This document shows, piece by piece, positions 16,322 to 16,397 of a DNA stretch of 17,726 bases. A model generated the notes under the pieces. That model saw nothing but the letters and a program-made list of their open reading frames with translations, was not told where the DNA came from and made no database searches. Position 1 is the first letter of the stretch. Every line of letters starts with the position of its first letter. The stretch is from a virus (taxonomy: Duplodnaviria > Heunggongvirae > Uroviricota > Caudoviricetes), in IMG/VR virus record IMGVR_UViG_2778261034_000021, one strand, 5' to 3'. Both the position numbers and the translations under genes were made by a program.

Positions 16322-16397
16322 GGCCCTTTAGCTCAGTGGTGAGAGCGAGCGACGCATAATCGCCAGGTCGCTGGTTCGAATCCAGTACAACGCGCCA
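16322..16397 (+). tRNA. tRNA-like element, anticodon CAT (Ile2/Met-type); acceptor stem not complementary, so possibly a pseudo-tRNA
   Basis: Canonical D arm (TAGCTCAGTGGTGAGAGC), anticodon arm with loop CGCATAA, T arm (GCTGG-TTCGAAT-CCAGT) and an encoded 3' CCA. The 5' acceptor strand GGCCCTT pairs with the 3' strand ACAACGC at only 2 of 7 positions, and position 33 is G rather than U. Confidence 0.45.

Follow-up and report, generated by a model that had tools for sequence, protein, structure and literature searches.

A tRNA-like element in the late region of a lambdoid prophage is very probably an ileZ/argO fusion pseudogene

The viral DNA analysed here (IMG/VR record IMGVR_UViG_2778261034_000021; 17,726 nucleotides, hereafter the window) carries on the plus strand a tRNA-like element of 76 nt, which, as read from the sequence, occupies positions 16322-16397, has the anticodon CAT and ends in GCCA. 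The analyses showed that this element is very probably an ileZ/argO fusion pseudogene, derived from an internal deletion in an ileZ-argN-argO tRNA cluster and non-functional as a tRNA. The fusion is of the kind expected from a deletion between tandem paralogous genes, and it matches no particular known system. No published description of an ileZ/argO fusion was found in the literature searched, a scope outside which most subscription journals lie.

The sequence of the element can be divided as GGCCCTT-TA-GCTC-AGTGGTGA-GAGC-G-AGCGA-CGCATAA-TCGCC-AGGTC-GCTGG-TTCGAAT-CCAGT-ACAACGC-G-CCA, and its parts are listed together with the neighbouring features in Table 1. All three arms were seen in the Rfam alignment; the D loop contains GG, and the T loop contains GTTCGAATC. 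The anticodon stem contains an A27.C43 mismatch, which is also present in intact ileZ. Position 33 of the anticodon loop, at which U is nearly universal among tRNAs, is occupied by G. In the acceptor stem pairs 1-72 and 7-66 alone can form, which gives two pairs of seven, whereas each parent gene has seven of seven. The boundaries, the canonical D, anticodon and T arms and the CCA described in the earlier note were therefore borne out by the sequence and the Rfam match, and its reading of GGCCCTT and ACAACGC as strands that do not pair, and of G in place of U33, was equally correct.

Table 1. Position of the features of the window and of related fused copies in other loci
Feature	Position	Strand	Remarks
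Integrase ORF	1-1236	-	
RalA antitoxin	1557-1735	+	other prophage RNA; 219 bits
C4 / isrK / DicF cluster	6584-7049	-	other prophage RNAs
sok	13862-14037	+	other prophage RNA; hok-type ORF nearby
Q-like late antiterminator	15633-16175	+	DUF1133 E = 1.8e-103; Phage_antitermQ E = 5e-7; PHROG 753 E = 1.5e-76
G+C-rich hairpin AACCCGC/GCGGGTT and T run	16259-16282	+	intrinsic-terminator-like, at the tR' position
Possible sigma-70 promoter TTGCGG-17 nt-TATTAT	16284-16312	+	by eye; 8 of 12 consensus matches
5' acceptor strand GGCCCTT	16322-16328	+	
ileZ-derived part	16322-16370	+	5' acceptor strand, D arm, anticodon arm, variable loop, first T-stem base
D arm GCTC/GAGC	16331-16334 and 16343-16346	+	
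Anticodon arm AGCGA/TCGCC	16348-16352 and 16360-16364	+	
G at tRNA position 33	16354	+	T in all three intact ileZ copies compared
Anticodon CAT	16355-16357	+	in the anticodon loop CGCATAA
T arm GCTGG/CCAGT	16370-16374 and 16382-16386	+	one G49.U65 wobble
Crossover interval CTGGTTC	16371-16377	+	T-stem positions 50-53 with T54, T55 and C56; same in ileZ and argO
argO-derived part	16378-16397	+	remaining T loop, 3' T stem, ACAACGC, discriminator G, CCA
3' acceptor strand ACAACGC	16387-16393	+	
Discriminator G	16394	+	
CCA	16395-16397	+	
Intrinsic-terminator-like hairpin and T8 run	16412-16437	+	scan: 7-pair stem with 6 G-C pairs, then TTTTTTTT
sRNA STnc100	16474-16664	+	138 bits; 77 nt downstream of the element
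ORF running off the window end	from 16887	+	DUF1737 and sialate O-acetylesterase (SASA) domains; NanS-p / yjhS type
Type-2 fusion, L009 (APEC O2-211)	2506-2581		
Type-2 fusion, L007 (UCPROB-002)	2516-2582		
Fused copy with G18A, L013 (IMG/VR)	4488-4563	+	
Fused copy with G18A, L022 (IMG/VR)	3918-3993		reverse-complement coordinates

The comparison with deposited phage genomes revealed the origin of both halves. The best BLAST match was phage Nil3, at 98% identity and in two pieces; the 419 bp of the query corresponded to 593 bp of Nil3, where a tRNA-Ile and two tRNA-Arg genes are annotated. ARAGORN identified ileZ (cat), argN (tcg) and argO (tct) in the intact loci of Nil3, PhiR49_2 and Stx2a_1447, and both annotation and ARAGORN place the two parent genes in tandem and in the same orientation in these close relatives. 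The four-way alignment of the window with the three loci showed that both flanks are colinear and are interrupted by a single clean gap, whose length is 174 bp when Nil3 or PhiR49_2 is the reference and 176 bp when it is Stx2a_1447. Lost are the 3' end of ileZ, the complete argN gene and the first two-thirds of argO, counted from its 5' side. The block GTTATTAT is invariant across the intact and fused loci in the alignment, and positions 16366-16840 of the window are 99.8% identical to the sequence downstream of argO in Nil3.

Base-by-base comparison showed that positions 1-56 of the element agree with ileZ at 55 of 56 sites, the sole difference being T33 to G, while positions 50-76 are the 3' end of argO (anticodon TCT), exact in the three intact loci. 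The element differs from ileZ further on at positions 57, 65, 67-71 and 73; its ileZ-derived part differs from argO at many sites, of which position 49 is the last, and ileZ is first excluded at position 57. The 7-mer in which the crossover falls lies within a 20-nt block, GGTC[G/A]CTGGTTC[A/G]AATCCAG, over which ileZ and argO are identical at 18 of 20 sites. Tandem parents, colinear flanks, one gap and a junction in common sequence, that is, everything looked for in a fusion by deletion, were found. The alignment to phage ileZ, which the earlier note had proposed as a check, upheld the Ile2-like identity of the CAU anticodon, as the 5' 56 nt are phage ileZ apart from U33G. Two of the origins it had offered as alternatives, a decayed phage tRNA and a recombination that replaced the 3' end, proved to be jointly correct: the element comes from ileZ and has a U33G change private to the fusion, and its 3' 27 nt are those of argO, joined within a microhomology of 7 nt in the T arm.

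The mixed parentage also accounts for the unpaired ends. The element lacks the 3' strand AAGGGCC of full-length ileZ and has G instead of A as the discriminator, and the natural partner of ACAACGC is GCGTTGT of argO, not GGCCCTT of ileZ. The acceptor stem cannot form because its 5' strand was taken from ileZ and its 3' strand from argO. A search of 400 nt upstream for another 5' partner of ACAACGC returned none within about 250 nt; the candidates detected lie inside the Q gene and pair at six of seven positions with G.U pairs allowed.

The scores given by the tRNA search programs agree with an incomplete tRNA. ARAGORN detected no tRNA in the whole window and likewise none in three further loci with the same, window-type (type 1) fusion (L001, L006 and L008). 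A misreading of the boundaries, which the earlier note had allowed for, would have shown itself as an intact tRNA with a paired acceptor stem, and none was returned. The Rfam tRNA model (RF00005) gave a local match at 16328-16387, covering model positions 7-64 of 71, with 37.3 bits and E = 8.5e-5 in the window; this exceeds the Rfam gathering threshold of 29 bits. The three genes of the intact cluster were all aligned globally, with 72.5 bits for ileZ, 70.1 for argO and 50.4 for argN. The tRNA-like core is thus well beyond chance, and the acceptor stem is truly missing.

Likewise, the folding energies do not point to a cloverleaf. The canonical cloverleaf has -8.3 kcal/mol in the fusion (-14.5 kcal/mol for the three arms alone) compared with -29.0 kcal/mol in ileZ; the minimum free energy fold of the fusion, at -24.6 kcal/mol, is not a cloverleaf, and its z-score relative to shuffled sequences is -0.97, against -4.0 for ileZ. 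Among the properties of a canonical tRNA, the element has the D, anticodon and T arms with their conserved loop residues, and it lacks the seven-bp acceptor stem, U33 and full-length detection by ARAGORN or Rfam. RNase P needs the stacked acceptor/T helix, A73 is used by both IleRS and MetRS, and the region of the pairs C4-G69 and C5-G68 is read by TilS and IleRS. The fusion has G73, its C4 faces A69 and its C5 faces A68. All computed evidence is against function as a tRNA and, judged from the structure alone, the element is most likely non-functional.

A second, independent ileZ/argO fusion (type 2) was found in at least 13 of the genomes listed, including APEC O2-211, ATCC 43896 and the UCPROB strains. 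It has the same parents as the window fusion, occupies the same slot behind an antiterminator gene and has a broken acceptor stem as well, with three of seven pairs. However, its crossover lies in AATCCAG (positions 58-64), 8 nt further 3' than that of the window type, and it retains U33 and the ileZ T loop TTCAAATCC, including A57. Its argO allele ends in ACAGCGC-GCCA, and the downstream flank differs from that of the window type. The type-2 fusion reached 47.2 bits in a global Rfam alignment and was called tRNA-Met by ARAGORN; PGAP gives it the same label. As the two types were judged differently, G33 seems to contribute to the rejection of the window copy by ARAGORN. The type-2 copies of UCPROB-001 and UCPROB-002 carry an additional deletion of 4 nt in the D arm. 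As the fusions of the two types are independent, deletion has recurred at the conserved T arm in this cluster.

The window-type fusion is widespread among E. coli prophages. The exact 76-mer was the best match at 99% identity or above in 160 E. coli records, and all 60 of the matches listed for it were full-length at 100%. The carriers, about 160 complete chromosomes, include O157:H7 (TW14359, EC4115 and SS17), O145:H28, O111, O121 and others, and 22 viral contigs of IMG/VR have the junction as well. The fusion is missing from the 50,697 deposited phage records, of which the 280 with a match all have intact ileZ, and the junction was absent from all 185,579 species-representative genomes. It is worth noting that counts at '>=80% coverage' were inflated for short queries, because two halves of intact clusters were joined into one place; the counts used are those of the band of at least 99% identity and of rows in a single piece.

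Each of the 27 fused copies read has G33. Among 5,426 E. coli genomes there was neither an intact ileZ with G33 nor a full-length type-1 fusion with U33; the best full-length rows of the latter search were at 98.7%, and the 28 records at 99% identity or above were not full-length. That G33 is private to the type-1 fusion suggests a single origin. The fusion stands behind at least three upstream modules, namely the DUF1133 Q gene with its hairpin in the window, a 933W-like antiterminator with a DNA methylase (O111 08-4455) and a further antiterminator (E2863), and it is followed by two types of downstream flank. The most economical reading of this distribution is a single origin followed by mosaic exchange, as is usual in lambdoid prophages.

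Most copies of the 76-mer are identical, which might be taken as a sign of retention, but intact ileZ is equally invariant, and the prophages are young and mosaic. Two IMG/VR contigs (L013 and L022) have a G18A change at the first base of the D-loop GG and score 35.0 bits with Rfam; a change in this conserved pair of bases is what relaxed selection predicts. Strains E2863 and PV15-279 each carry an intact ileZ in addition to the fusion, which is sometimes present twice per genome, as in E2863. As both strains keep intact ileZ elsewhere, the loss is therefore buffered. The identical fusion in O121 RM8352 (L001) is accompanied in the late-regulatory region by two partial genes flagged by PGAP, at 2407-2757 and 463-540, which are an ORF6N-domain fragment and a truncated hypothetical gene; they suggest a wider decay of that prophage.

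The window represents the left arm of a lambdoid prophage. PHROG 753, matched by the gene upstream of the element, is described as 'anti-termination protein Q-like'. The hairpin that follows this gene was read from the sequence and is drawn in a partial Trp_leader match, and it is not among the terminators given by the simple scan; in Nil3 a tR' is annotated upstream of the tRNA genes. A sharp mosaic boundary was observed at about 16283, as homology to the tRNA leader of other phages begins directly after the hairpin, and in other copies the leader and the fusion are preceded by the 3' end of a DNA methylase gene or by an antiterminator module of another kind. The promoter-like sequence in this leader ends 9 nt before tRNA position 1 and scores below the threshold of the promoter scan; judging by its motifs, it is possibly the promoter of the tRNA cluster. 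The terminator behind the element is retained unchanged; it is conserved after argO in Nil3, PhiR49_2 and Stx2a_1447. The sRNA STnc100 is placed likewise behind intact argO in Nil3 and in loci with either type of fusion. A partial 'hypothetical protein' pseudogene annotated by PGAP opposite STnc100, at about 16493-16636, is probably a spurious call.

The gene order described for Stx phages is Q, DNA methylase, tRNA genes, stxAB, yjhS and lysis genes (PMC3491183), and the three tRNAs near stx2a have been called two Arg and one 'Met' (PMC7946995). The relic occupies the late-operon slot between Q and stx / nanS-p, and the layout fits both the published order (PMC3491183) and the annotated phage records. 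No stx gene is present in the tRNA slot of this prophage. A position of the fusion upstream of stx was rejected for the three copies with the alternative 3' flank, which carry STnc100 and AgvB instead of stx. In one of them (L030), the anti-GcvB sRNA AgvB (92.5 bits) at 1045-1106 on the plus strand abuts a variant of STnc100 at 1107-1315 on the minus strand; this variant scores better, at 175.6 bits, and the same arrangement is found in all three alternative-flank copies.

Other explanations of the element were also considered. It is very unlikely that it is a tRNA-like RNA with another role, whether it acts as a decoy for nucleases or modification enzymes that target tRNAs, serves as a processing signal or, as a 5' module, affects the downstream STnc100. 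The identity of the 76-mer in about 160 genomes, with at least three types of upstream flank and two of downstream flank, the preservation of the three arms and the constant position directly upstream of STnc100 would agree with such a role. However, the one change observed among the copies falls on the universally conserved G18, the phage records lack the fusion (0 of 50,697), STnc100 is placed in the same way after intact argO, and the second fusion with its different junction fits a recurrent accident better; the earlier note's third suggestion, of an RNA with a different role, thus gained no support. A specific form of it, in which the fused RNA is stably made at prophage induction and acts through its three-arm core as a decoy or as a module for STnc100 processing, is highly unlikely; possible targets of such a decoy are the anticodon nucleases of the host or of rival phages and tRNA-modifying enzymes. 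If it were true, the private G33 would be adaptive and not a sign of decay. Barely credible is a working non-canonical tRNA, tRNA-Met or tRNA-Ile2, that tolerates an almost unpaired acceptor stem. Its intact arms and CCA, the Rfam score above the gathering threshold and the PGAP label tRNA-Met (71 nt, without a pseudogene flag) stand against two acceptor pairs of seven, G33, a cloverleaf about 20 kcal/mol worse than that of ileZ and the rejection by ARAGORN. The discriminator G and the broken pairs 4-69 and 5-68 also conflict with the published identity sets of IleRS, MetRS and TilS; moreover, half of one gene is joined to half of another, and the fact that PGAP calls intact ileZ tRNA-Ile but the fusions tRNA-Met is a sign of a lost isotype signal.

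An attachment-site scar, in which the integration of a mobile element replaced the 3' end of the tRNA, is exceedingly improbable. Many integrases target and replace tRNA 3' ends, and the window contains an integrase gene; however, about 15 kb separate the element from that gene, its site is internal to the prophage, with Q on one side and the nanS-p / lysis region on the other, the flanks to the left and right run colinear with those of intact clusters, and the new 3' end is exactly that of argO, which lies 174 bp downstream in the relatives. The internal position and the colinear alignment exclude such a scar. As the junction falls in a short repeat common to two nearby genes, a collapse of the similar T arms of neighbouring tRNA genes during sequencing or assembly may also be envisaged, but its probability is practically negligible: the same junction and G33 occur in about 160 complete genomes from many laboratories and in 22 IMG/VR contigs, and the repeat, at 7-20 nt, is far below read length.

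The fusion pseudogene is most likely mis-annotated by PGAP, which in identical genomes gives the segment corresponding to 16327-16397 of the window (71 nt) as 'tRNA-Met' with no pseudogene flag; the tRNA calls of PGAP rest on tRNAscan-SE. In RefSeq/PGAP intact ileZ is 'tRNA-Ile' and both fusion types are 'tRNA-Met', and several deposited phage records label intact ileZ tRNA-Met as well. The isotype labels of CAU genes in the ileZ-argN-argO cluster are inconsistent across databases. As a consequence, the relic and the second fusion type are listed in RefSeq as functional tRNA-Met in well over 150 complete genomes of STEC and other E. coli, so that tRNA counts are too high and the loss of the rare-codon tRNAs ileZ, argN and argO from these prophages is concealed. 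The junction together with G33 is a clean marker, probably of single origin, and could be used to trace the movement of a late-region module between lambdoid prophages. The two independent fusions show that the conserved T arm is a minor hotspot of deletion where tRNA genes are clustered in tandem. The understanding of tRNA biology is unchanged by the fusion.

We propose that the fusion pseudogene was formed by a short-homology event, either replication slippage or short-homology recombination, that joined position 56 of ileZ to position 57 of argO within the 7-nt CTGGTTC common to the T arms of the two genes. The 174 bp removed reach from the 3' end of ileZ across argN and into argO. The product keeps three tRNA arms and the encoded CCA, with acceptor strands from different genes, and has acquired U33G too. 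Its transcription probably persists in the Q-dependent late transcript, perhaps also from a weak promoter of its own. The acceptor/T-arm helix on which RNase P, TilS and the aminoacyl-tRNA synthetases depend would not form, and the fused RNA would undergo neither maturation nor charging; most likely it is degraded. The deletion would leave the prophage without any of the three rare-codon tRNAs, with intact clusters usually kept in other prophages of the host.

Among known systems, the closest to the relic are the intact ileZ-argN-argO clusters of Stx and other lambdoid phages (933W, VT2-Sakai, Nil3, Lahn2 and Stx2a_1447), with which it shares the slot, the leader and the terminator after argO. 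It differs from them in the 174-176 bp that are missing, in the absence of argN and in having one 76-nt gene with unpaired ends and G33. Hybrid genes are also formed by deletion or unequal crossing-over between tandem tRNA paralogues, for example between the tandem tyrT copies of E. coli. As in the relic, recombination in such hybrids takes place in sequence common to neighbours of the same orientation, the interval is deleted and one gene is left. The parents of the tyrT-type hybrids, however, are near-identical isoacceptors, and the hybrid works, whereas the parents of the relic are an Ile2-type and an Arg-UCU tRNA with differing acceptor stems and a homology of just 7 nt at the junction, and the hybrid is broken.
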